DNA from: Bacteroidota bacterium
GTDB lineage: Bacteria > Bacteroidota > Bacteroidia > Bacteroidales > FEN-979
Direction: 5' to 3'
Length of the DNA: 64,000 bases
Assembly: GCA_026391775.1 (NCBI GenBank)
Contig: JAPLDK010000054.1
Coordinates: 13,907 to 77,906 of the forward strand
The translations under genes and the position numbers were made by a program. Shown here piece by piece: positions 53,781 to 64,000 of the stretch (its first letter is position 1; each line of letters begins with the position of its first letter). Under the pieces are notes generated by a model, which saw only the letters and a list, made by a program, of their open reading frames with translations, was not told where the DNA came from and did no database searches.

Positions 53781-56036
53781 TTATTTGGATCCAATTTGAG
53801 CCTGTTCTTCTTTTAATGCCTTGTTCCCGAGCCACCTTATCCTGAAAATAGTAATGATGGCATAAGTAAAATGAAACCAGACAAGTGACAGCAGTACAAT
53901 TAGGGTATATACCATCCAGAGTGGAGCATTGGTGTCGCCAAGACCGCGTTTAATGATCACATCGGGGGGAAGTGGTTTGCCCCAGGCCATGGTTGCACTC
54001 ACTTCGGCACTGCCGTAATTATCATTATCTTCGAATTTGGCTACAACCGGCAGGTTCCCTGCAGAATCTCCCGGAAGTGTGACCGGGAAATCAAGGTCGG
54101 CATGCCCGCTTTTAACCGCTTGCTCACCTATTTTCAAGGATGAAAAAGTCCTTGGCACATAAAATATTACCGTGGATCCTTCAATGGGAATGGAATCACC
54201 TTTCTGGTTGATCTCAACTGCAAACAGGTTAATCAGCTTCGAGCTGTCTTTTTGCGAAAATGTGATCTTCATGAACACATCACGGATTTCTGTGGAAGAT
54301 TCCGATGGCTGAAACTCCTTACTTCCTTCATAGGTTGCCGAATAGCTGTATTTCCCTTCTTTGTTCCTGGGAACATCGAGTTTGCCGGGCAGGGTGAACG
54401 TTGCCTTTCCTGCTTCGTCGGTTGATTCTTTTCCGAGCAATACCTTGTCCTTCTCACCCTGAATAAAAAAACTTACCTGCATGCCCTGGAGGGGGATGGT
54501 CTGGTCATCCTTTTTACTGGTGAGTTTAGTCGTCAGCATGCGGGTTCCGGATTTATTAAGGAATTCAAGTTTCAGCCTCGATTTCACCGGATCCTGAGCC
54601 CGGCATACAAGTGAAGAGGAAAGTATCATCAGAATGACAATGCCCACGACTACATTCTTTTCCTTTCTTGTCTTGCTGATCAGCCGGCGAAGAATACGTT
54701 CCCTGGCGAGTTTTCTCAGTTTAAAATAATCTCTTTCTTCGGATACCGGTACCCTTACTACAGGTACAATGGGCAGGAATTTCGAAAAGAGAAAGAATAA
54801 GAGTAACCAAATAGCGATTCCCATCGCCGTGAGCGACCATTCAACCCAGCTGGGTGAATAACTTGCAAATTCCGGCCTCAGATCATGGAGTGGAAGCAGA
54901 GGTGTTTCAAGGGTAGGTATGATGATGAGGTAACGCTTGACCCAGAGGGCGGTTACAGCGATCAAAGCGGCAAATACAATGGTATTGATATTCCTTAAAC
55001 GCGGCATTGCGATCAGGCCGATGGGTAGCAGGACTCCAATAAAAGCTGAGAAAAAGAACCACCACCAATAGGTTGATGCATCAAAGAGGCGGTACAGGAC
55101 TTCCATGTCCCATTTCACACTGCCGTACCAGTTGGTCAGATATTCACTGAAAGTAAAATAACCATACAGGGCTCCAAGGATCATAAGCAGAATGCCCAGG
55201 TAATTAAAATGATTCTTGGTGATAACGGCTTCGAGATGATATATCTTACGGAACACGAACATGACTAAGATCAGAACTCCGGTGCCCGAGTATACTGCAG
55301 CAAGAACAAAGTACGGGGCGAAAATGGTGCTGTGCCAGCCCGGACGGAGTGTCATGCCGAAAATCCAGGCAAGGACGGAGTGGACCAGGATAGCCAGGGG
55401 GATGATCACGATGGAGATCAGGTCGATAAGCTGGTTTAAGAGTTCACGCTGCTTTGGGGTATCGCGGTAGTTGGCCGACATGAATTTATAGATGCGGTTG
55501 CGCCATCTTCCAATGCCTATGGGGTGATCCCTCATAAAGGCAAGGTCACGTACGCAGGCCAGGTACAGGAAGATAAAACTGCCGATGAGATAGGTTGATA
55601 TGGCAATCACATCCCAGACAATAGGCGATTGTATCCTGCCGTATACAAATAGATGCCATACCCTTTCGAGCCGTCCCATACTGAGGAAAATATAACTGGG
55701 CCCGATCAAAGTTGAAATAACCGTGATAGTCTCAGCCATCCGCAAAATAGGATGCCTCCATTCAACCCTGAGCAGATGCAGAATACCTGAGATCAGGGCG
55801 CCAGCGTAACTTATCCCGATGAAGAAAATGAAGTTGGCATCATATATGCCCCAGATCACGTAATCGCGCATTCCGGTAACAACCTGGCCTTTCGATAACT
55901 GTGTATATAAAGCATAAGTCCCCCAGGCGATTATCATGACCATGGCAGTGATGAAAAAATACCCGTACCTGCCTATGGATTCAAGCTGAGGCTTAAACGT
56001 CTCGTAGTTTTTATATGTTTTGCTGTTGTATTCCAT
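53781..56036 (-). CDS. NrfD/PsrC-family quinone-interacting membrane subunit with a ~320-aa C-terminal extension
   Basis: aa 1-425 show the NrfD-family helix pattern (TGMRDYVIWGIYDANFIFFIGISYAGALISG, RPGWHSTIFAPYFVLAAVYSG). Next comes a basic linker, one TM helix (VVVGIVILMILSSSLV), about 225 aa of beta-rich sequence with two similar repeats, and a final TM hairpin (LWMVYTLIVLLSLVWFHFTYAIITIF). Confidence 0.8.
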   Translation of the reverse strand: MEYNSKTYKNYETFKPQLESIGRYGYFFITAMVMIIAWGTYALYTQLSKGQVVTGMRDYVIWGIYDANFIFFIGISYAGALISGILHLLRVEWRHPILRMAETITVISTLIGPSYIFLSMGRLERVWHLFVYGRIQSPIVWDVIAISTYLIGSFIFLYLACVRDLAFMRDHPIGIGRWRNRIYKFMSANYRDTPKQRELLNQLIDLISIVIIPLAILVHSVLAWIFGMTLRPGWHSTIFAPYFVLAAVYSGTGVLILVMFVFRKIYHLEAVITKNHFNYLGILLMILGALYGYFTFSEYLTNWYGSVKWDMEVLYRLFDASTYWWWFFFSAFIGVLLPIGLIAMPRLRNINTIVFAALIAVTALWVKRYLIIIPTLETPLLPLHDLRPEFASYSPSWVEWSLTAMGIAIWLLLFFLFSKFLPIVPVVRVPVSEERDYFKLRKLARERILRRLISKTRKEKNVVVGIVILMILSSSLVCRAQDPVKSRLKLEFLNKSGTRMLTTKLTSKKDDQTIPLQGMQVSFFIQGEKDKVLLGKESTDEAGKATFTLPGKLDVPRNKEGKYSYSATYEGSKEFQPSESSTEIRDVFMKITFSQKDSSKLINLFAVEINQKGDSIPIEGSTVIFYVPRTFSSLKIGEQAVKSGHADLDFPVTLPGDSAGNLPVVAKFEDNDNYGSAEVSATMAWGKPLPPDVIIKRGLGDTNAPLWMVYTLIVLLSLVWFHFTYAIITIFRIRWLGNKALKEEQAQIGSK

Positions 56037-56047
56037 GCTGTGAAATA

Positions 56048-57019
56048 TTATTCGGATAAGTTGGCTTCTTTCTTATATAATTGAATTTCCTCAGGTTTCA
56101 GGTCCTGGAACCCTACTTTATAATCGAAAAGACGGTTGACCGGAGGCAGGTAGTAAACTCCGGGCTCGGTGCCAAGTTCTTCCATGTAGCGGTATGCTGC
56201 CCTTTGCTGGACTATCTCGCTGAACCTTACCGTTTCAGTGCCATTGGTCACAGTGTCTTCATTTTTATCACCATAGAAATAAACTCCATTGGGGCATGAG
56301 GTAACACAGGACGGCAGTTTGCCCTGCCTCACCATATCGGGACAGAAGTCACATTTGCCCACTGTACCAACCTTTTGAGGCCAGCTTGTTTCGGGGGAAT
56401 ATTTTTTATCAGCAGGAAGGGGTTCCTGGTCGGGAGACCCCCAGTTAAACACCCTGGAAGAATAAGGACATGCGGCCATGCAAAACTTGCATCCAATGCA
56501 GCGGTCATTGTCGATCAGCACAATTCCGTCGGTCCGTTTGAACGTAGCTCCGACCGGGCAAACCTTGACACAGGGAGGATTGTTGCACTGGAAGCAGGGC
56601 TTAGGGAACCAATACGGGGAAGTATCCTTGCTGTCCCTCAGAAGGAAAAATTTAATCCACTCTATTTTCGGGGGGAGATGGTGCATACTCTGGCATCCCT
56701 CCAGGCATTTCCTTGCATTCCGGCATCGGGCCAGGTCAATAACCATCACCATTTTCTTGTTGGGAATACCCTGACGGGCTTCCTTTCCGGTTGCAGGGCA
56801 GGCATGGCAATGGCCCTTGTCAACTTCAACGAGTGTGCCATCGGGCGACAGCAGTTTGACTTTCTCACCCGTTTCACCGGAGGCCTGCCCAGGGTTGGAA
56901 ACCGCAGATAAAACTTTTCCGCCTCCTCCAATAAGCGCTGTAGCGCCGGCTGCCAGGCCAAGTTTCAGAAACTTTCTTCTTGAGGAATTGTTGTCCTTCA
57001 TATTGGTGTTTTTTTCCAT
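56048..57019 (-). CDS. Tat-exported four-cluster Fe-S subunit (NrfC/PsrB/HybA-like)
   Basis: Tat motif SRRKFLKLGLAAGATALIGG. Cys groups: CRNARKCLEGC, CFQCNNPPCVKVCP, CIGCKFCMAACPY, CDFCPDMVRQGKLPSCVTSCP. The start may instead be the ATG at 57001 (MKDNNSSRRKFL), because a -7 box sits 3 nt from the ATG at 57019. Confidence 0.85.
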   Translation of the reverse strand: MEKNTNMKDNNSSRRKFLKLGLAAGATALIGGGGKVLSAVSNPGQASGETGEKVKLLSPDGTLVEVDKGHCHACPATGKEARQGIPNKKMVMVIDLARCRNARKCLEGCQSMHHLPPKIEWIKFFLLRDSKDTSPYWFPKPCFQCNNPPCVKVCPVGATFKRTDGIVLIDNDRCIGCKFCMAACPYSSRVFNWGSPDQEPLPADKKYSPETSWPQKVGTVGKCDFCPDMVRQGKLPSCVTSCPNGVYFYGDKNEDTVTNGTETVRFSEIVQQRAAYRYMEELGTEPGVYYLPPVNRLFDYKVGFQDLKPEEIQLYKKEANLSE

Positions 57020-57128: not shown

Positions 57129-57142
57129 TTGACATATATCAA
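57129..57142. promoter_or_regulatory. FNR/CRP-type palindrome TTGAC-ATAT-ATCAA
   Basis: The sequence ttgacatatatcaa has one mismatch to the TTGAT-N4-ATCAA consensus. It lies in the divergent intergenic region between the nrfC-like operon and the crp/fnr gene, 7 nt upstream of the -7 box at 57150. Confidence 0.45.
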
Positions 57143-57149
57143 TATTTAT

Positions 57150-57157
57150 TACTTTTG
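57150..57157 (+). promoter_or_regulatory. -7 promoter box TACTTTTG upstream of the crp/fnr gene
   Basis: It matches TAnnTTTG and ends 5 nt before the ATG at 57162, which implies a leaderless or very short-leader mRNA. Confidence 0.3.
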
Positions 57158-57161
57158 CCTT

Positions 57162-57863
57162 ATGTTGGAATATCTTGAAAAAACCACGAGGAGTTGCGTA
57201 AACTGTTCATGCAAATCAGCTCTTTTCTGTTTTTTAACCCATGAAGAACTTGAAATGGTTGAAAAGAACAAGCTGAATGTGATTTTCAAGCCGGGTGAAA
57301 CCATCCGCAAACAAGGCACACAGATGACCCATGTGATCTCAGTGAACTCCGGGATGGCCAAGCTGTATCTTGAAGGCATTGAAAGCAGGAATGCCATTCT
57401 ACGAATTGTAAGGCCGACAAACTTTATTGGTGGACCCGGCATTTACCTCGACCAGATGCACCATTATACCGTTATGGCTATCATGGAATCATCGGTTTGC
57501 TTCATCGAACTCAACGTTATCAAGGAAATTATCCGGAGAAACAGTCGTTTTGCCGAGGAGTTCATGAAAGACTTCAGCCGGAATACCCTGAATGTGTATA
57601 ACCGTTTGATCTATCTGACCCAAAAACAAATGCCCGGAAGGATGGCCGATTCCCTCTTGTACCTTTTCGAGGAGATCTTTGAATCGGATCATTTTCCCAT
57701 GCTTCTGAACAAACAGGACCTGGCCGATCTTTCAGCCATGTCGCGCGACAGCGCAGTAAAGATCTTAAGGTCTTTCCAGCATGAGGGCCTTATTAGGTTT
57801 GATGAAAAAGAATTACGGCTTCTTGACCATGAATCACTGAAGAAGATCAGCCGTATCGGGTAA
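57162..57863 (+). CDS. Crp/Fnr-family transcription regulator with an FNR-like N-terminal cysteine cluster
   Basis: The track start at 57129 is TTG; the ATG at 57162 gives MLEYLEKTTRSCVNCSCKSALFCFL. The C-x2-C-x-C-x5-C cluster is followed by THEELEMV, which resembles the E. coli FNR C-x3-C-x2-C-x5-C N-terminus. A further Cys sits in the beta-roll (SSVCFIE). cNMP-like fold: FKPGETIRKQG. C-terminal HTH: DLADLSAMSRDSAVKILRSFQHEGLI. Confidence 0.85.
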   Translation: MLEYLEKTTRSCVNCSCKSALFCFLTHEELEMVEKNKLNVIFKPGETIRKQGTQMTHVISVNSGMAKLYLEGIESRNAILRIVRPTNFIGGPGIYLDQMHHYTVMAIMESSVCFIELNVIKEIIRRNSRFAEEFMKDFSRNTLNVYNRLIYLTQKQMPGRMADSLLYLFEEIFESDHFPMLLNKQDLADLSAMSRDSAVKILRSFQHEGLIRFDEKELRLLDHESLKKISRIG

Positions 57864-57892
57864 TCCGGAATTTCGTATGTTTGGCTCCGGAA

Positions 57893-59833
57893 ATGAGGGC
57901 TCCCGCAAATATCCATATTGACCACCTTTTGATTTTCCTGATCATAGCCATCGGAGCTGTTCTCAGGTTTTACAACTATGGCTCCATCCCTTTCACTCAC
58001 GACGAATTCAGCGCCATTTTCCGGACACAATTCAGCAGTTTCCATGACCTGATTGCCAACGGTGTGGTGGTTGACACCCATCCCGCAGGGGTCCAGGTGT
58101 TCCTTTATTATTGGGTAAAGCTTTTTGGCGTATCCGAACCCCTGGTAAAACTGCCGTTTACGATTTTCAGCCTGCTCTCGGTTTACCTGATCTATTCCAT
58201 CGGCAGGCAGTGGTTCAGCTCCACATCAGGCCTGATTGCGGCGTCGTTTCTCTCATTTCTCCAATACCCCCTGATGTACGGGCAGATCGCCAGGCCATAC
58301 GCCAGCGGTTTGTTTCTCGTGCTGTTGATGGTATATTTCTGGACCAGGATCATGCTTTACCCCGATAAACGATACTCCCTGAACCTAGCAGGGTATATCC
58401 TGGCTTCGGCCTTTTGCGCCTACAACCACCATTTTTCATTGCTTTTTTGCGGGATTGCAGGCCTTACCGGCATTTTCATCATTTCAAGGCAGCACCGTAT
58501 TTCCTATATCATCTCATGGTTTGTGATTTTTCTGCTTTATATCCCGCATCTTTCAATCTTCTTCGGCCAGCTTAAGCAGGGTGGGATAGGGGGATGGCTC
58601 AGCAAACCCCGGCCCGACTTTATTCTGGATTACCTGAGCTATGCTTTCCAGTTCTCATGTTATGTAGCTGCACTGTTGCTGCTGCTTGTCGTGCTTTCCC
58701 TGCTATGGAAAGCCAAAAGGAAACACACGAATTACCGACTGTTGCTGGTTTCCTTTTTATGGTTTTTAATTCCCCTTCTGACCGGATTTCTTTACTCCGT
58801 TTATATAAACCCTGTCCTGCAATATTCCGTACTTATCTTCTCCTTTCCTTTCTTGTTACTGCTGATGTTCTTTTATGCGGATGCAAAACATCCCTGGCAA
58901 AAATTCATACTTGTGGCTGCCTGCGCAATGGTGATCATTCCTTCACTGATATCCGAAAGGAAACATTACAGGCTGTTTTACAATTCCCCTTACAGGGAGA
59001 TCATTATTGAGGCGAAGCAAGCCGCCGATTCCCTGGGCAGATCCAACTGTTTTATCCTGCTTGATTCTCACAAACGCTTTACCGATTATTACCTCGAAAA
59101 GCCCGGCATGGAAAATTTTCATCTCAACTTCTTCCATGATATATTTGAGCCCCCCGTCATCAGCGGTATTATAGATACCTGCACGGCCCGGTACTTCGTT
59201 TACGGCTGCATCTCGAATTCAAGATGGGAGGACTATCCTGTTATCCAGGCAAAATATCCTTACATCCTGGTTCATAAAAGGCTTAATGAGGGCGACTTTT
59301 ATGTGTTTGCAAAGGACAGAGTTCCCGGCCTCAATGAATATTATTTTTCTTCGTATGCTGATTTCGTTTCGAACAGATCAGGCTGGGTTAACTTCATGCC
59401 GGCCAATGTCCGGTTTTCGGGCATGGACCTGGAAACCCCCGTCTACTGCCTGGACAGCAACTTGCAATTCAGTCCGATTTTCAGAGGATCCCTCAGGGAC
59501 ATCAGCCGTAATAAAAATGATATTATTGATCTCTGTGCTGATGTTGAAACCCCTGAAGGATTCTCGGAAGCTTATCTGCAGCTAGGCATATATCAAAAAG
59601 AAAAGCTTCTTTCATTTCAGTCTGCGACTATAGCAGGCAGAAACTCCATGGAATTCCGCCGGATTTATTGCTCCTGCCGCCTTTCCGATATTGAATGGAG
59701 GCATCATTCCCTCTACGTCCAGGGGTTTATCTGGAATCCTAAAAAACAGGATCTGGTGATCAGGGGGATGTCGTTCCGGATAAGGCATGGCAACCCGTTT
59801 CTGTACGGGCTTTACAGAAAAATTGAAAATTGA
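57893..59833 (+). CDS. Polytopic membrane glycosyltransferase, GT39/ArnT-like (GT-C fold)
   Basis: The N-terminal loop FTHDEFSAIF...DTHPAGVQVFLYYW is followed by about 10 TM helices and a soluble C-terminal domain of about 270 aa. The track start at 57881 is TTG; the first ATG is at 57893. Confidence 0.65.
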   Translation: MRAPANIHIDHLLIFLIIAIGAVLRFYNYGSIPFTHDEFSAIFRTQFSSFHDLIANGVVVDTHPAGVQVFLYYWVKLFGVSEPLVKLPFTIFSLLSVYLIYSIGRQWFSSTSGLIAASFLSFLQYPLMYGQIARPYASGLFLVLLMVYFWTRIMLYPDKRYSLNLAGYILASAFCAYNHHFSLLFCGIAGLTGIFIISRQHRISYIISWFVIFLLYIPHLSIFFGQLKQGGIGGWLSKPRPDFILDYLSYAFQFSCYVAALLLLLVVLSLLWKAKRKHTNYRLLLVSFLWFLIPLLTGFLYSVYINPVLQYSVLIFSFPFLLLLMFFYADAKHPWQKFILVAACAMVIIPSLISERKHYRLFYNSPYREIIIEAKQAADSLGRSNCFILLDSHKRFTDYYLEKPGMENFHLNFFHDIFEPPVISGIIDTCTARYFVYGCISNSRWEDYPVIQAKYPYILVHKRLNEGDFYVFAKDRVPGLNEYYFSSYADFVSNRSGWVNFMPANVRFSGMDLETPVYCLDSNLQFSPIFRGSLRDISRNKNDIIDLCADVETPEGFSEAYLQLGIYQKEKLLSFQSATIAGRNSMEFRRIYCSCRLSDIEWRHHSLYVQGFIWNPKKQDLVIRGMSFRIRHGNPFLYGLYRKIEN

Positions 59834-59838
59834 GACAG

Positions 59839-60432
59839 ATGCCGGCAAAGAAGAAAGCAGCGCAGCTAAAAAAGACGATCCATGTTAAAAACATGGTTTG
59901 TAACTGCTGTATCCGCCTGCTCAGGAAGGAACTTGCGATCGATGGCATCACATTACACAACATTAAACTTGGGACCATTGAGCTTTCCCACGATCCGAAG
60001 AAAGTCACTTTAAAAACGATCCATGGGATGCTTGAAGAGTTCGGCTTTGAGATCATCATCGACAAGGAGAAAATTCTTATAGAGCAGATCAAGCAGGCTA
60101 TGATCGAGCTGATCCATAACTCGACGTATAATTCCATGGTGCGAAACTCCGACTACCTGGTAGAACGTTTTGAAATGTCTTATCCCTATATTTCTTCCCT
60201 TTTTTCAAAGCACGAGAACATCACGCTTGAAAAATTCACTATCCTTCATAAGATCGAAAAGGTGAAGGAACTTATCCAATACGGGGACCTTACCCTGAGC
60301 GAAATCGCCTATATCATGGGTTACAGCAGTGTACAATACCTCAGCACCCAGTTCAAATCGGTTACCGGGGTTTCCGTAACCGATTACAAGGCTAATCCTG
60401 TACTTGAAAGGAAAGCTCTGGATAATCTTTAG
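59839..60432 (+). CDS. AraC-family regulator with an N-terminal HMA-like (ferredoxin-fold, CxxC) domain
   Basis: The N-terminus KTIHVKNMVCNCCIRLLRKELAIDGITLHNIKLGTIELSHDP resembles the GMxCxxC heavy-metal-associated fold. The C-terminus is an AraC HTH: LSEIAYIMGYSSVQYLSTQFKSVTGVSVTDYK. The track start at 59830 is TTG; the ATG is at 59839. Confidence 0.75.
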   Translation: MPAKKKAAQLKKTIHVKNMVCNCCIRLLRKELAIDGITLHNIKLGTIELSHDPKKVTLKTIHGMLEEFGFEIIIDKEKILIEQIKQAMIELIHNSTYNSMVRNSDYLVERFEMSYPYISSLFSKHENITLEKFTILHKIEKVKELIQYGDLTLSEIAYIMGYSSVQYLSTQFKSVTGVSVTDYKANPVLERKALDNL

Positions 60433-60548: not shown

Positions 60549-60809
60549 ATGAAACTTAAAAAAAATATTGCCGTAAGCGAGGCGGGCTTGCTCTTTAACC
60601 CGGTAACCGGCGAATCCTTCTCAGTAAACCCGATCGGTACCGAGATCCTGAATCTCTTGCGCGAGGAGAAGACCGATGAACAGATCCGTTCAGCCATTCT
60701 GGCTAAATACAGTACCGATAACCCCACTTTCGAAAAGGACTACCAGGATTTTATCGGTATACTTTCACACAATAATCTCCTCGAAAACCATGAAGAAACC
60801 AAAGCTTAA
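60549..60809 (+). CDS. PqqD-family small protein (RiPP-recognition-element-like peptide/protein chaperone)
   Basis: AGLLFNPVTGESFSVNPIGTEILNLLREEKTDEQIRSAILAKYSTDNPTFEKDYQDFIGILSHNNLLE follows the PqqD pattern (tG-x-x-x-x-lN-x-x-g-x-x-iw-x-ll, then t-x-e-x-i, Y, D-x-x-x-F-l-x-x-L-x-x-x-x-Ll). The track start at 60531 is GTG; the ATG is at 60549. Confidence 0.7.
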   Translation: MKLKKNIAVSEAGLLFNPVTGESFSVNPIGTEILNLLREEKTDEQIRSAILAKYSTDNPTFEKDYQDFIGILSHNNLLENHEETKA

Positions 60810-61836
60810 TATTGCTGTCACAGGCCTCAACGCCATCGACAGCCCTGGTCCGGGAGTGTCGGTGATAAGGGCTCTGAGAGAGGCAACTTCATTCGATACC
60901 CGTATCATCGGACTATCCTATGAATCGCTGGAGCCCGGTATTTATATGCACGACCTGGTCGACCGCACTTATTCGATCCCTTATCCTACAGCAGGGACCG
61001 ATACCCTGCTCGAAAGGTTTGAGTATATCCAGGAGCGGGAAAAACTAGATGTGATCATTCCCAACTTCGATGCGGAACTTTATCCTTTTATCAAGCTCGA
61101 GAACAAGCTCAAAGAGATGGGCATACACATGTTCCTGCCCACCATGCACCAGTTTGAGGAGCGTCATAAAGTCAACCTGAATGAATTCGGAAAGAAATAT
61201 GGAGTTCATGTGCCGAAAAGCAAGGTAATCTACGACCTCAATACCGCTCACAGCCTTGTGTCGGAATTCTCTTTCCCTATGATCGTGAAAGGCAAGTTCT
61301 ATGACGCTTCGATCGCATACAGTATTGAACAGGTAAAGAGCTGCTTCAACAAGATTAGCGCCAAGTGGGGACTTCCCATCATCATCCAGGAGTTCATCCA
61401 TGGAACAGAGTTCAATGTAACCGGTCTTGGCGACGGTAAAGGTAAAACCATTGCTGCGGTGCCAATGCGTAAGCAGTATATCACCGACAAAGGCAAGGCT
61501 TGGGGAGGGATCAGCATTTCCGATGAAAAGATGCTGGAGATGACCCGGAAATTCCTCAGGACCACCAAGTGGAGGGGAGGGTTTGAGTTGGAGCTGATGA
61601 AGAACAAAGATGGAGAGTTGTATCTGCTTGAGATCAACCCGCGTTTGCCGGCCTGGATTTATCTTGCCGTTGGAGTAGGACAGAACATTCCCGAAGCCCT
61701 GGTCAACCTGGCAATGGGCCGCACGGTTAAACCATTTACCGATTATGCAGTGGGAAAGATGTTCGTGCGTTATTCCTGGGACATGATTGTCGACAGGGAG
61801 GAGTTTGAACAGATATCAATATATGGTGAACTATGA
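60790..61836 (+). CDS. ATP-grasp ligase (carboxylate-amine/thiol ligase superfamily)
   Basis: The ATG at 60790 (MKKPKLNIAVTGLN) overlaps the PqqD-like stop by 20 nt. The track start at 60676 lies inside the previous gene. ATP-grasp features: a pre-ATP-grasp Rossmann-like N-terminus, FPMIVKGKFYDA, IIIQEFIHGTEFNV, and ELYLLEINPRLPAW (Mg-ATP binding E-x-N). Confidence 0.8.
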   Translation: MKKPKLNIAVTGLNAIDSPGPGVSVIRALREATSFDTRIIGLSYESLEPGIYMHDLVDRTYSIPYPTAGTDTLLERFEYIQEREKLDVIIPNFDAELYPFIKLENKLKEMGIHMFLPTMHQFEERHKVNLNEFGKKYGVHVPKSKVIYDLNTAHSLVSEFSFPMIVKGKFYDASIAYSIEQVKSCFNKISAKWGLPIIIQEFIHGTEFNVTGLGDGKGKTIAAVPMRKQYITDKGKAWGGISISDEKMLEMTRKFLRTTKWRGGFELELMKNKDGELYLLEINPRLPAWIYLAVGVGQNIPEALVNLAMGRTVKPFTDYAVGKMFVRYSWDMIVDREEFEQISIYGEL

Positions 61837-61842
61837 ACCGGA

Positions 61843-61875
61843 AACCGCGAACCGTTTCATTCACGGTTCGCGGTT
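61843..61875 (+). other. Perfect 13-bp stem-loop between the ATP-grasp and decarboxylase genes
   Basis: AACCGCGAACCGT (61843-61855), loop ttcattc, ACGGTTCGCGGTT (61863-61875). It is preceded by the direct repeats tGAACCG-GAAACCG-CGAACCG. No U-tract follows. Confidence 0.6.
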
Positions 61876-61917
61876 CATGAGTCACGAAAACATTAATGAT
61901 TGAAAATAAACGAAACT

Positions 61918-63276
61918 ATGAGTAAACAAAGATATGAGCGCCCGGTTATAAAGAAGCTTGAAACCGGAATGCCGAACAAATTCGGAACAAGAACCGAATA
62001 CCAGCCCATGACCCATATTGACGGGTTAGCGGTTGAGAAGCTGATGAAAGACTACGGGTCACCATTGTTTGTGATCTCCGAAAAGACCATCCGCAAGACC
62101 ATACAGAAAGCAAAAAAGGATTTCAGGACGAGGTACCCGAGGGTGCAGTTTGCCTGGTCCTATAAAACAAATTACCTGAATGCCATATGCAGCATATTCC
62201 ACCAGGAGGGCTCCTGGGCCGAGGTTGTTTCGGGTTTTGAATACGACAAGGCTATCAGCCTGGGTGTGGATGGCAAAAAGATCATCTTCAACGGGCCTGA
62301 GAAAAGCGAGGAAGACCTCACCAAAGCGATCAGGAACGACTCCCTGATCCATATCGATCACCTGGATGAGCTTTATACTATCTCGGAACTGGCCGAAAAA
62401 CACAAAGCCCGCCCGAGGGTGGCTATCAGGGTAAACATGGATACCGGTGTATATCCTATATGGGACCGCTTCGGATTCAACTATGAAAACGGCCAGGCCT
62501 GGGATGCCATTAACAAGATCATGCATTCCGATACTCTGGAACTTGTGGGATTACATTGCCACATCGGTACCTTTATGCTTGCGCCTTCTGCCTATGGCAT
62601 TGCTGCATCAAAACTTGCTGAACTTGCACTCTCGGTGGAAAAGAAATTCAAACACGAAATAAAATATATCGACCTTGGCGGGGGGTTTGCTTCAAAAAAC
62701 ACCCTGAAAGGGTCATACTTGCCGGGTTCTGATACCAACCCTACCTTCGATGATTTTGCCGAAGCCATTTCCAGCTCCCTGCTCAACAGCAATTTCAAAC
62801 AGGAAAAACTGCCCCTGCTTATCCTGGAAACCGGGCGCGCATTGATTGACGAAGCGGGTTACCTGCTTGGATCGGTTATTTCGAATAAACGCTCGAGTAC
62901 CGGCCGCCGCAATACGATCCTTGATATAGGCGTTAATATCCTGTTCACCTCATTCTGGTACGATCACAAGATCACACCCGCCCAGGCCTTTACCCATTAT
63001 TCGGAGGACACTTGCATTTATGGCCCCCTGTGCATGAATATTGATGTGATCCGCGAAAGCGTCAGCCTGCCTTTGCTCAACAAGGACGATCATGTGGTGA
63101 TACACCATGTTGGCGCTTATAACATGACCCAATGGATGCAGTTTATCGCCCTCCGGCCCAACGTTGTTCTTATCGATATGGATGAAAAACCCCATGTGAT
63201 ACGCCTTCGCGAAACCCTGGATAATATGAACAGCATGGAGAAGGTACCGGCCCATCTGAAAAAATTTAATGTATAG
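61918..63276 (+). CDS. Fold-type III PLP-dependent decarboxylase (DAP/Orn decarboxylase family), second paralogue in the window
   Basis: PLFVISEKTIRK, FAWSYKTNYLNAI (PLP-lysine region), HCHIGT, YIDLGGGFA, ILETGRAL, HHVGAYNMTQW. The track start at 61900 is TTG; the ATG is at 61918. Confidence 0.85.
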   Translation: MSKQRYERPVIKKLETGMPNKFGTRTEYQPMTHIDGLAVEKLMKDYGSPLFVISEKTIRKTIQKAKKDFRTRYPRVQFAWSYKTNYLNAICSIFHQEGSWAEVVSGFEYDKAISLGVDGKKIIFNGPEKSEEDLTKAIRNDSLIHIDHLDELYTISELAEKHKARPRVAIRVNMDTGVYPIWDRFGFNYENGQAWDAINKIMHSDTLELVGLHCHIGTFMLAPSAYGIAASKLAELALSVEKKFKHEIKYIDLGGGFASKNTLKGSYLPGSDTNPTFDDFAEAISSSLLNSNFKQEKLPLLILETGRALIDEAGYLLGSVISNKRSSTGRRNTILDIGVNILFTSFWYDHKITPAQAFTHYSEDTCIYGPLCMNIDVIRESVSLPLLNKDDHVVIHHVGAYNMTQWMQFIALRPNVVLIDMDEKPHVIRLRETLDNMNSMEKVPAHLKKFNV

Positions 63277-63305
63277 TTTTAAGAATTGTTAAATAAAGTT
63301 TGAAT

Positions 63306-64000
63306 GTGCAAAAGCTGAGATCCACCTTTCCATCGTTTCTGACGAGCATAGTCAACAGCTATACCCAGATCTTCTTCTCAAACAACAGGATCTTCGCGCT
63401 GATATTGATAGCGGTCACTTTTTTTGATGTGTGGGCCGGCCTGAGCGGTATCATTGCCGTAATGGTTTCCAATATCCTGGCATACCTCATCGGGTTCAAC
63501 CGTATCAATATCAAAAAGGGGTATTACGGGTTCAACAGCCTGCTTGTCGGCCTGGGGCTCGGAGTCTATTATCAGCCCGGCCTGCAGTTTTTCATCATCC
63601 TGCTGTTTGCGTCCTTACTCACACTTTTCCTCACGCTCTGGGTTGAAGGAGTGGTAGGCAAGTACGGGCTTCCCTTTCTAAGCCTCTCGTTTTTAATCGG
63701 GACATGGGGGGTTAGCCTGGCAGCAAGGCAGTTTACAGCTCTGCATGTGAGCGAGAGGGGCATCTTCATGACCAACGAGATGTTCAGCATGGGCGGCCAC
63801 AGCATGGTTAACTCTTACAACTGGCTTACCAACCTGGGGATCCATGATTCGATAAGGCTTTATTTCACCTCCCTCGGCGCAATCTTCTTCCAGTATCACC
63901 TTTTTGCAGGTATCCTGGTTGCCATCGGGCTGATCATCTATTCGCGCATAGCATTCGTACTTTCACTTCTGGGCTTCTTTTCAGCCTATGCCTATTACAA
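63306..64000 (+). CDS. Urea-transporter (UT/SLC14-like) family membrane protein, 3'-truncated by the window edge
   Basis: This ORF is not in the supplied track. My own translation from the GTG at 63306 is open to the last base: VQKLRSTFPSFLTSIVNSYTQIFFSNNRIFALILIAVTFFDVWAGLSGIIAVMVSNILAYLIGFN...GYYGFNSLLVGLGLGVYY...LPFLSLSFLIGTWGV... The SYxQIFF and GFNSLLVGLGLG segments and the helix pattern resemble UT-family proteins. It starts 29 nt after the decarboxylase stop. Confidence 0.6.
   Translation, partial: MQKLRSTFPSFLTSIVNSYTQIFFSNNRIFALILIAVTFFDVWAGLSGIIAVMVSNILAYLIGFNRINIKKGYYGFNSLLVGLGLGVYYQPGLQFFIILLFASLLTLFLTLWVEGVVGKYGLPFLSLSFLIGTWGVSLAARQFTALHVSERGIFMTNEMFSMGGHSMVNSYNWLTNLGIHDSIRLYFTSLGAIFFQYHLFAGILVAIGLIIYSRIAFVLSLLGFFSAYAYY

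Follow-up and report, generated by a model that had tools for sequence, protein, structure and literature searches.

The window analysed here is a 64,000-nucleotide (64-kb) stretch of contig JAPLDK010000054.1 from a Bacteroidota bacterium. At its end, four forward-strand genes form a compact cassette encoding a PqqD-like protein, an ATP-grasp ligase, a pyridoxal 5'-phosphate (PLP)-dependent decarboxylase and the first part of a urea transporter (UT)-family membrane protein (Table 1). An earlier note, made from the sequence alone, had described this layout, and its details hold. The 20-nt overlap between the PqqD-like stop and the ATP-grasp start is exact on re-reading of the open reading frame (ORF) list and the raw sequence. 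The coordinates of the 81-nt spacer with its perfect hairpin and of the decarboxylase behind it are verified, as is the UT-family ORF, which starts 29 nt past the decarboxylase stop. On the upstream side, 116 nt separate the end of an AraC-type gene from the PqqD-like start. All four cassette proteins pass Pfam gathering thresholds, and none of them reaches an NCBIfam equivalog cutoff. With the window ending inside the UT ORF, the downstream gene order is taken from a 91%-identical relative (L004) and from 80 species loci.

Table 1. Features of the cassette and its surroundings, in window coordinates
Feature	Position	Strand	Description
AraC-family regulator with N-terminal HMA/CopZ-like domain	59830-60432	+	probable local regulator
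PqqD-like ORF	60549-60809	+	ATG to TAA, 86 aa; recognition element (RRE) of discrete lasso-B1 type
ATP-grasp amide ligase ORF	60790-61836	+	ATG start, 348 aa
Spacer between ATP-grasp and decarboxylase genes	61837-61917		81 nt
Perfect hairpin	61843-61875	+	13-bp stem and 7-nt loop, inside the spacer
Alanine-racemase-fold PLP decarboxylase	61918-63276	+	ATG start, 452 aa, closest to FigC/FslC
YERPVI, leader-like Y-x-x-P-x-[I/L] motif in the decarboxylase tail	61933-61950	+	predicted RRE docking site
UT-family ORF	63306-64000	+	GTG start, first 231 aa of a 734-aa UT::M23 protein, cut by the window end

A cassette conserved across phyla

In a genome scan, relatives of the ligase are found in more than 569 species genomes, and the best 80 Bacteroidota species loci were kept for the counts. 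The denominators are the loci with enough flank, and three of the synteny counts are hand-corrected to take in loci with abutting or overlapping genes. The trio of PqqD, ATP-grasp and decarboxylase genes is adjacent in 69/70 Bacteroidota loci, and a gene for a UT domain fused to an M23 metallopeptidase (UT::M23) follows in 55/59. Further downstream, the gene for a 498-aa secreted protein with no Pfam match and then that for a 223-aa tetratricopeptide repeat (TPR) protein are present in 51/51. An AraC gene lies at most 3.5 kb upstream in 44 of 68 Bacteroidota loci, and this regulator is not conserved at the cassette loci examined outside Bacteroidota. Against the query proteins, the ligase has a median identity of 84% and the decarboxylase one of 82% (range across species 72-96% for the two); the PqqD and UT::M23 proteins reach 67-68% and the 498-aa protein 52%. 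The two enzymes are under the strongest constraint. Homologues of the ATP-grasp protein number 6867 at E < 1e-10; each of the first 120 is from a Bacteroidota metagenome-assembled genome (MAG) and has 83% identity or more. A search of 1.8 billion cluster representatives gives 242 clusters at E < 1e-30, and these include tandem double ATP-grasp proteins of ~710 aa. The cassette also occurs in complete genomes, among them OY759717.1 and OY820914.1.

The same arrangement is observed in other phyla. In Myxococcales (L092) the order is PqqD, ligase, decarboxylase, UT::M23, a TPR-barrel protein and a TPR protein. In a lineage of 63% GC (L095), two secreted proteins precede PqqD, ligase, decarboxylase and UT::M23. 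The Methylomirabilota (L093) and Nitrospinota (L094) loci, both from MAGs, encode a TPR protein, PqqD, a double ligase, the decarboxylase and a UT domain fused to a sirtuin (UT::SIR2). In the high-GC loci L090/L091, the order is TPR, PqqD(-fused) ligase, a second ligase-like protein, decarboxylase and UT::SIR2::GNAT; L095 and L090/L091 represent two unassigned high-GC lineages. The TPR proteins are homologous between phyla (Bacteroidota versus Myxococcales version, E = 2.6e-25), and start/stop overlaps of neighbouring cassette genes are found in several lineages. In addition, Rosetta-stone fusions join the parts directly: P0222 is a PqqD::ATP-grasp protein, and P0161 and L086 are ATP-grasp::decarboxylase proteins. 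This gene arrangement is far beyond chance, and the quartet is a real, tightly linked functional unit. The earlier note had proposed a compact operon and had suggested checking whether the quartet co-occurs elsewhere; the adjacency in Bacteroidota, the recurrence in other phyla and the natural fusions bear this out. Searches of the open full-text literature, which did not extend to subscription-only papers, gave no description of the operon.

Two loci call for a separate remark. A contig labelled Alphaproteobacteria bacterium (L047, SACF01000015.1) carries the cassette at 83% ligase identity in full Bacteroidota gene order, and its label is probably a MAG binning or labelling error. At L068 (12771-14518), the stretch behind the decarboxylase gene lacks the UT::M23, 498-aa and TPR genes, and cas2-like and cas1-like ORFs, judged by eye from the sequence with no hidden Markov model search, lie a few kb downstream.

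The four proteins and the search for a precursor

The PqqD-like protein scores 43.2 bits with the Pfam PqqD family (cutoff 23.4). Its sole match in the Protein Data Bank is TbiB1 (5v1u/5v1v; E = 9e-12, aligned over 71 residues), a discrete recognition element (RRE) of the kind that serves pathways to peptides made by ribosomes and modified after translation (RiPPs), crystallised with lasso leader peptides. Passing the PqqD/RRE models and matching TbiB1, the small protein is what the earlier note had taken it for. The conserved core of the family is formed by FNPxxGESFxxNPxG and by Asp64 in D-x-x-x-F. The C-termini vary between lineages (...HEETKA, ...HDDE, ...NGLVG, ...IALPR, ...SVDG). No invariant Lys, Glu, Cys or Ser is found across the lineages aligned, and no acyl carrier protein (ACP) family matches in Pfam or NCBIfam. 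With no conserved acceptor residue and a variable C-terminus, the protein is therefore unlikely to be a covalent carrier, and the idea that it is itself the carrier is not supported. Discrete lasso RREs recognise the motif [Y/W]xxPx[L/V/I/F/A] (PMC13381572).

The ligase is above cutoff with Pfam ATPgrasp_Ter (44.7 bits) and ATP-grasp_3 (30.6 bits) and scores 22 bits with NCBIfam rimK_fam (cutoff 143) and 93 bits with PRK12767 (cutoff 390). P0001 is an exact copy of it. The AlphaFold2 model of the ligase has a mean predicted confidence (pLDDT) of 93.3. Its Foldseek neighbours are the uncharacterised 2pn1, carbamoyl-phosphate synthetase, biotin carboxylases, PurD and PurK, and further the L-amino-acid ligases RizA and BL00235; these are generic ATP-grasp neighbours only and give no substrate clue. 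LysX, RimK and graspetide ligases are absent among the top 50. Likewise, graspetide-type families are not among the Pfam and NCBIfam matches, and no clustered precursor accompanies the ligase. The Mg/ATP motif E281-x-N283-x-R285 and the conserved lysines are invariant in the family, and by these motifs the protein appears to be an active amide ligase. Tandem double ATP-grasp proteins of ~710 aa are encoded at L093 (9001-11136) and L094 (9001-11139), and at L091 (4229-5110) a separate truncated ATP-grasp-like protein of 293 aa follows the ligase. Such tandem or second ATP-grasp proteins, seen outside Bacteroidota and Myxococcales, hint at two ligation steps or at a pseudo-enzyme partner.

The decarboxylase, called a diaminopimelate (DAP)-type PLP decarboxylase in the earlier note, matches Pfam Orn_Arg_deC_N (109 bits) and Orn_DAP_Arg_deC (46.8 bits). 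Its best solved relative is the N-citrylornithine decarboxylase FigC (7kh2, 210 bits), while solved diaminopimelate decarboxylases (DAPDC) reach at most 137 bits and BtrK (7ru7/2j66) 79 bits. The scores with NCBIfam FslC (NF041039; 244.6 bits, cutoff 500) and lysA (TIGR01048; 219.4 bits, cutoff 297.9) are below the cutoffs. The catalytic set is kept, including the PLP Lys83, the GGG loop, ETGR and the Cys of GPLCM. Aligned to 1twi, the sequence has Thr in place of the Arg of the DAPDC specificity helix (NILFTSFWY) and Met in place of the Glu of the CES motif (CMNID); we take these two DAPDC residues to be those that bind DAP. The FigC citrate ligands H357 and R387 are replaced by Ile and Gln, and no synthetase of the NIS type (for siderophores made independently of nonribosomal peptide synthetases) is present in the locus. 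Since it lies below both cutoffs and has its DAP- and citrate-binding residues replaced, the decarboxylase is neither LysA nor FslC. FigC groups with SbnH, AcsE, MccE, BtrK and DAPDC in a clade unrelated to polyamine synthesis, and several members of the FigC clade use amino acids whose far end is already conjugated (PMC7857480). By its sequence relationships, the cassette decarboxylase belongs to this branch acting on conjugated amino acids (FigC, SbnH, BtrK, MccE), closest to FigC.

An N-terminal tail of 29 aa (beginning MSKQR-YERPVI-KK) is absent from all solved relatives of the decarboxylase. Tyr6, Pro9 and Ile11 are the positions of a motif that reads Y-E-R-P-x-[I/L]-x-[K/R] over all Bacteroidota loci, with Y-x-x-P-x-[I/L] invariant. 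The motif is YERPVI in Myxococcales, YEKPVL in L095, and YQPPLI and YESPLI in L090 and L091. In the ATP-grasp::decarboxylase fusions it is found in the inter-domain linker (YQRPSI in L086, YVRPSI in P0161). In Methylomirabilota and Nitrospinota, the tail contains RPYEPMxL (YEPMxL), shifted by one residue. As a background, Y..P.[IL] occurs within the first 20 residues in only 1/771 of the remaining ORFs with 200 aa or more from the fetched DNA. We reject a role of the tail as covalent scaffold, since none of its nucleophiles or carboxylates is invariant and the fusion proteins have it at an internal position.

A precursor peptide was sought by clustering all 18-130-aa ORFs of 60+ loci. The clusters are frame shadows of real genes only, and no conserved small ORF besides the known genes is found in more than 60 Bacteroidota loci with this BLAST-based search, which is weak for ~20-aa peptides. 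No precursor gene is present next to the cassette in 6 distant loci, and a motif scan of the 64-kb window reveals no intergenic short ORF with a YxxP leader motif. The gaps between the decarboxylase and UT genes hold insertions only, such as an unassigned ORF of 191 aa in L079 and L083. The earlier observation that no candidate precursor lies upstream of or between the genes thus holds in the window and extends to the loci of more than 60 relatives. From it, the earlier note had concluded that the substrate is encoded elsewhere or is the PqqD-like protein. The latter option is not supported, and the former now has a rival in the YxxPx[I/L] tail of the decarboxylase. We propose that this tail, which looks like a docking peptide, binds the PqqD-like RRE, because a TbiB1-type RRE is present, the motif that such an RRE recognises is found on the decarboxylase, and there is no nearby precursor.

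The UT ORF scores 135 bits with Pfam UT (profile positions 2-207 of 292), the full L004 orthologue 198.6 bits. It is identical in 231/231 residues to the N-terminus of P0388, a 734-aa UT and Peptidase_M23 protein, whose architecture consists of a 10-transmembrane (10-TM) UT domain, a divergent M23 metallopeptidase and a beta-rich C-terminal domain. In cassette loci with UT, the UT domain always carries a C-terminal fusion, either M23 or a sirtuin that may be followed by GNAT. The pore pairs of dvUT are mostly retained (Q-x-x-F and G-F-N-x-x-L in both halves); the changes are from the mid-pore Thr to Ser in both halves and from Glu187 to Ala. The score with the Yut equivalog (TIGR03441) is 115.4 bits, below the cutoff of 274.6, and no urease genes are found in any locus inspected. 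The earlier note had a small product moved by a UT-like channel. The UT domain keeps most of the dvUT pore residues, and the protein is a fusion with M23 or sirtuin and not a plain transporter. The UT-M23 architecture is already listed in the literature, without a function (PMC12998343).

The M23 part scores 58 bits with Pfam M23 and matches MepM, ShyA and Pgp3-type peptidoglycan peptidases; its HxH motif (PHIHF) and the His of SHL are invariant. The sirtuin versions have GAG..GIPD(Y/V)R, QNVDGLH and the catalytic His, with ~200 bits to CobB-type deacylases. Sirtuins need NAD+, which places them in the cytoplasm. Both sirtuin and M23 occupy the same C-terminal position, neither fusion type has a further TM segment behind UT, and the linker after UT is rich in Lys and Arg. 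On these grounds, we infer that the fused domains including M23 are cytoplasmic. The full-length UT::M23 model is poor (pLDDT 49, shallow alignment), and only its C-terminal ~220 residues are confident. They form the beta-rich domain after M23 (P0388 ~514-734, L004 13990-14646; pLDDT 80-90), with weak Foldseek matches to lipid-binding half-barrels of the LolA/LprF/RseB type (TM-score 0.3-0.4). These matches of the model are a hint on which we do not rely, and they would be unexpected for a domain that is inferred to be cytoplasmic.

Proposed pathway and competing explanations

We tentatively favour a conserved, uncharacterised cassette that makes an amine or amide derived from a conjugated amino acid, with the decarboxylase docked to the ligase by the RRE. 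The ATP-grasp ligase would join a carboxylate to an amino acid via its far end, with the alpha-amino acid end left free. This could follow FigA/FigC, with the bond at a diamino acid's distal amine, or BtrJ/BtrK, with the bond at a Glu or Asp side-chain carboxylate. The FigC-like decarboxylase would then strip the alpha-carboxylate of the conjugate, and an N-acyl-diamine or an amino-acid-derived amide would result. The RRE would bind the decarboxylase tail and, with its translational coupling or fusion to the ligase, would form a ligase-decarboxylase complex for direct hand-over. The tandem ligases found in some phyla would agree with a second ligation step like that of rhizoferrin. M23 or sirtuin would cleave the product, or a protected precursor, at the cytoplasmic mouth of the UT pore, through which it would then pass. 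An outward route would be completed by the secreted TPR proteins, joined in Bacteroidota and Myxococcales by a putative outer-membrane barrel. The fuller form of this scheme, in which an RRE is repurposed for enzyme-enzyme assembly and an amine or amide exits via a UT channel with its own cytoplasmic amide hydrolase, is possible but doubtful. Of the carrier- or peptide-tethered ligation and decarboxylation that the earlier note had put forward, the unit of a ligase and a conjugate-type decarboxylase is retained, and the covalent carrier is not.

Several points weigh against this proposal. All characterised PqqD-like RREs that we know of bind a separate substrate peptide, so that an unlinked precursor is a natural expectation. 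The Methylomirabilota/Nitrospinota motif is Y-x-P-x-x-L, and its inclusion hangs on the choice of start codon. Instead of docking, the tail might serve structure or oligomerisation in the decarboxylase subfamily. The ligase has no close characterised relative by sequence or among its top 50 structural neighbours. The first zinc motif of M23, H-A-W-D, is HxxD instead of HxxxD and is followed by a ~20-aa insertion, and in L095 a Glu replaces the His of this motif; with such an atypical zinc motif, the M23 activity is putative. Furthermore, M23 and LolA-like domains are usually periplasmic, and sirtuin, GNAT and M23 in the fusions may act as regulators and not as pathway enzymes. Finally, the adjacent UT fusion is missing in four Bacteroidota loci and in L086. 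The trio is thus the core with the UT fusion as a very frequent fourth member, and the channel may be accessory.

A RiPP or scaffold-peptide pathway with its precursor encoded elsewhere is the somewhat unlikely alternative that the RRE itself suggests, the PqqD-like protein being a bona fide lasso-B1 relative. The RRE would present a YxxP leader, the ligase would add an amino acid to the carboxylate or amine of the peptide, the decarboxylase would trim it, and M23 or sirtuin would free the product or the leader at the channel, following the logic of pearlin/3-thiaglutamate or fosfazinomycin. RiPP clusters have peptidase-containing exporters, and TPR proteins are typical peptide binders; the M23-channel fusion mirrors such exporters, and TPR proteins are present here. 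Scaffold-peptide routes to small molecules do exist, as described in the fosfazinomycin preprint, where the YxxP motif is stressed, precursors of 21-22 aa had been missed for a decade and short partners are said to be easily overlooked. Against such a pathway, no precursor adjoins the cassette in at least six divergent lineages, although RiPP precursors are usually clustered, and the window has no intergenic short ORF with the motif. Enzyme identities of 72-96% across species are unusual for specialised-metabolite clusters, and the motif bound by the RRE is already on the decarboxylase. A cell-envelope system that modifies or recycles a peptidoglycan-type peptide (e.g. a meso-DAP stem peptide) or another envelope component is improbable. 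M23 would act as a muropeptide endopeptidase in it, in line with the matches to MepM, ShyA and Pgp3-type peptidases, and its envelope partners would be the TPR and barrel-like secreted proteins that Bacteroidota and Myxococcales always have. The decarboxylase is homologous to DAPDC, the enzyme of the free D-centre of DAP, the peptidoglycan ligases D-Asp ligase and Ddl are ATP-grasp enzymes as well, and PBP2 and RodA are encoded upstream in L004. However, this PBP2/RodA context is not conserved, and in the window its place is taken by Crp and PMT_2 genes. The decarboxylase has lost the Arg and Glu that bind DAP, M23 has an atypical zinc motif, and the NAD-dependent sirtuin at the position of M23 in other phyla points to a cytoplasmic, non-muralytic role.

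It is very improbable that the PqqD-like protein is a covalent carrier like BtrI or LysW, to which an amino acid would be joined by ligation, lose its carboxylate in the tethered state and be set free afterwards. It is small, acidic and translationally coupled to the ligase, BtrK is homologous to the decarboxylase, and a possible releasing hydrolase is present. Its fold is that of PqqD/RRE and neither an ACP nor the LysW zinc ribbon, no Lys, Glu, Asp, Cys or Ser is invariant beyond the fold-defining residues, and the C-terminus differs between lineages and is fused to the ligase in P0222; the LysX/RimK ligases are not near structural neighbours. An incidental clustering of ordinary primary metabolism, with a LysA or polyamine decarboxylase, a housekeeping ligase and a urea channel, is hardly credible, for all that the public annotations read 'carbamoyl-phosphate synthase large subunit' and 'urea transporter' and the sequences are highly conserved. 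The NCBIfam scores are below the cutoffs (lysA 219 vs 298, urea_trans_yut 115 vs 275, PRK12767 93 vs 390), the residues for DAP binding are missing, the loci inspected show neither a urease nor a polyamine context, and the synteny and fusions are too consistent for incidental clustering. The earlier note had named loss of synteny, failure of the small protein with PqqD/RRE models and membership in a known primary route as findings that would speak against it. The quartet is syntenic in other genomes, the small protein passes these models, and no known primary route accounts for the enzymes. As an unrelated candidate, an anti-phage defence system was considered and rejected; PADLOC gives no match for the cassette proteins and only marginal matches for the sirtuin variant.

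The cassette resembles the discrete lasso B1 RREs (TbiB1, FusB1/TfuB1) in the alignment with TbiB1, the conserved Asp before the C-terminal helix and the occurrence of Y-x-x-P-x-[I/L]. Unlike lasso pathways, the locus has no B2 protease, no Asn-synthetase-like lasso cyclase and no precursor gene, and the motif is at an enzyme N-terminus or in a fusion linker, not on a short substrate peptide. With FigA/FigC (FslA/FslC) of rhizoferrin it would share ligation followed by decarboxylation of a conjugated amino acid, and it shares the FigC-type GPxCMxxD loop. However, the rhizoferrin ligase is a NIS synthetase and not an ATP-grasp enzyme, H357/R387 are replaced in the cassette, FigC has no RRE partner, and rhizoferrin is exported by major facilitator superfamily (MFS) pumps and not by a UT fusion. 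The analogies of the earlier note to BtrI/BtrJ/BtrK and LysW/LysX turn out to be loose. The former also encode a small protein, an ATP-grasp enzyme and an alanine-racemase-fold decarboxylase together, the latter combine a small protein with an ATP-grasp enzyme, and the cassette hydrolase could release a product as LysK does. Differently from both, the cassette small protein has the PqqD/RRE fold without a conserved attachment residue. There is no ACP tether as in Btr and no LysW protein, BtrK is distant (79 bits vs 210 for FigC), a conserved C-terminal Glu is lacking, rimK_fam scores 22 against 143, and LysX/RimK are outside the top 50. The scaffold-peptide pathways (3-thiaglutamate/pearlins, fosfazinomycin) are similar in that RiPP machinery builds a small molecule, and different in that no scaffold gene is found here and the ligation is by ATP-grasp, not tRNA-dependent or Asn-synthetase-like. 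The urea channels (dvUT, Yut, UT-B) share the full-length 10-TM UT domain and most of the paired Q/F/F/L pore residues; the cassette UT differs by its fusion to M23 or sirtuin, its pore substitutions, its score below the Yut cutoff and the lack of urease context. MccE also carries a GNAT domain. Together with the decarboxylase of MccE, this echoes the cassette decarboxylase and UT::SIR2::GNAT. The MccE decarboxylase, which has the alanine-racemase fold, belongs to microcin C (PMC7857480). By their defining tests, the cassette does not qualify as a lasso, graspetide, Btr, LysW/LysX, LysA, FslC or Yut system.

That RRE-to-enzyme docking and UT-coupled release are new principles is possible but doubtful. 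If true, the cassette would hold the first RRE whose ligand is an enzyme and would add a new mode of enzyme-complex assembly, in a pathway spread over at least five phylum-level lineages. To our knowledge, UT-family channels are known only for urea. The cassette would give such a channel its first non-urea biosynthetic role and would account for the catalogued UT-M23 and UT-sirtuin fusions. PqqD-like RREs serve as a class-independent flag for RiPPs, and a widespread RRE cassette that lacks a precursor gene and bears the recognition motif on a partner enzyme would alter the reading of such matches. The cassette is common, with thousands of homologues, yet all its proteins are only generically annotated. 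Solving it would assign a function to a large unannotated gene block and probably reveal a new small metabolite.

Spacer and flanking genes

The hairpin between the ligase and decarboxylase genes has a predicted energy of -25 kcal/mol (z = -2.8 vs shuffles). No T-run follows it in the window, which rules out a canonical terminator. The same spacer was compared in close relatives (L006, L007, L010, L015, L016, L020, L026, L037, L044, L045), where it measures 11-266 nt and consists of short tandem repeats or long perfect palindromes, such as (GTGAACC)x10 in L006, CACCCTGTY 8-mers in L044 and GCGATTT in L045. A conserved regulatory element is likewise ruled out, the hairpin being not conserved and without a T-tract in a hypervariable spacer. 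The hairpin is one lineage-specific state of a repeat-prone spacer and is outside the mechanism. The spacer may be a slippage or phase-variation hotspot for the downstream genes.

The AraC regulator shows HTH_18 and HTH_AraC domains in the L004 orthologue (Pfam), with a sub-threshold HMA match of 20.1 bits (cutoff 24.8). The window protein scores 29 bits with NCBIfam CopZ, below the cutoff, and has a CxxC in 'MVCNCC'. Further upstream on the forward strand, a 650-aa PMT_2 (ArnT-like) membrane glycosyltransferase is encoded at 57881-59833, and a Crp/Fnr-type regulator at 57129-57863, between a group of reductase genes and the AraC gene. Relatives do not share the position of the PMT_2 and Crp/Fnr genes, which in L004 is occupied by PBP2 and RodA. 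The reductase genes (53781-57019, reverse strand) encode an NrfD-type membrane subunit fused to Ig-like repeats and a 4Fe-4S subunit with a twin-arginine translocation (TAT) signal. Located a few kb upstream of the cassette, they resemble polysulfide or thiosulfate reductase genes. In L092 (1-2472), a molybdopterin/Fer4/NrfD cluster with sulfur-transport and rhodanese genes is found just upstream of the cassette, and multihaem cytochromes are encoded nearby in L095. The proximity of these redox and sulfur genes to the cassette may be a coincidence or may reflect a link with anaerobic or sulfur physiology.

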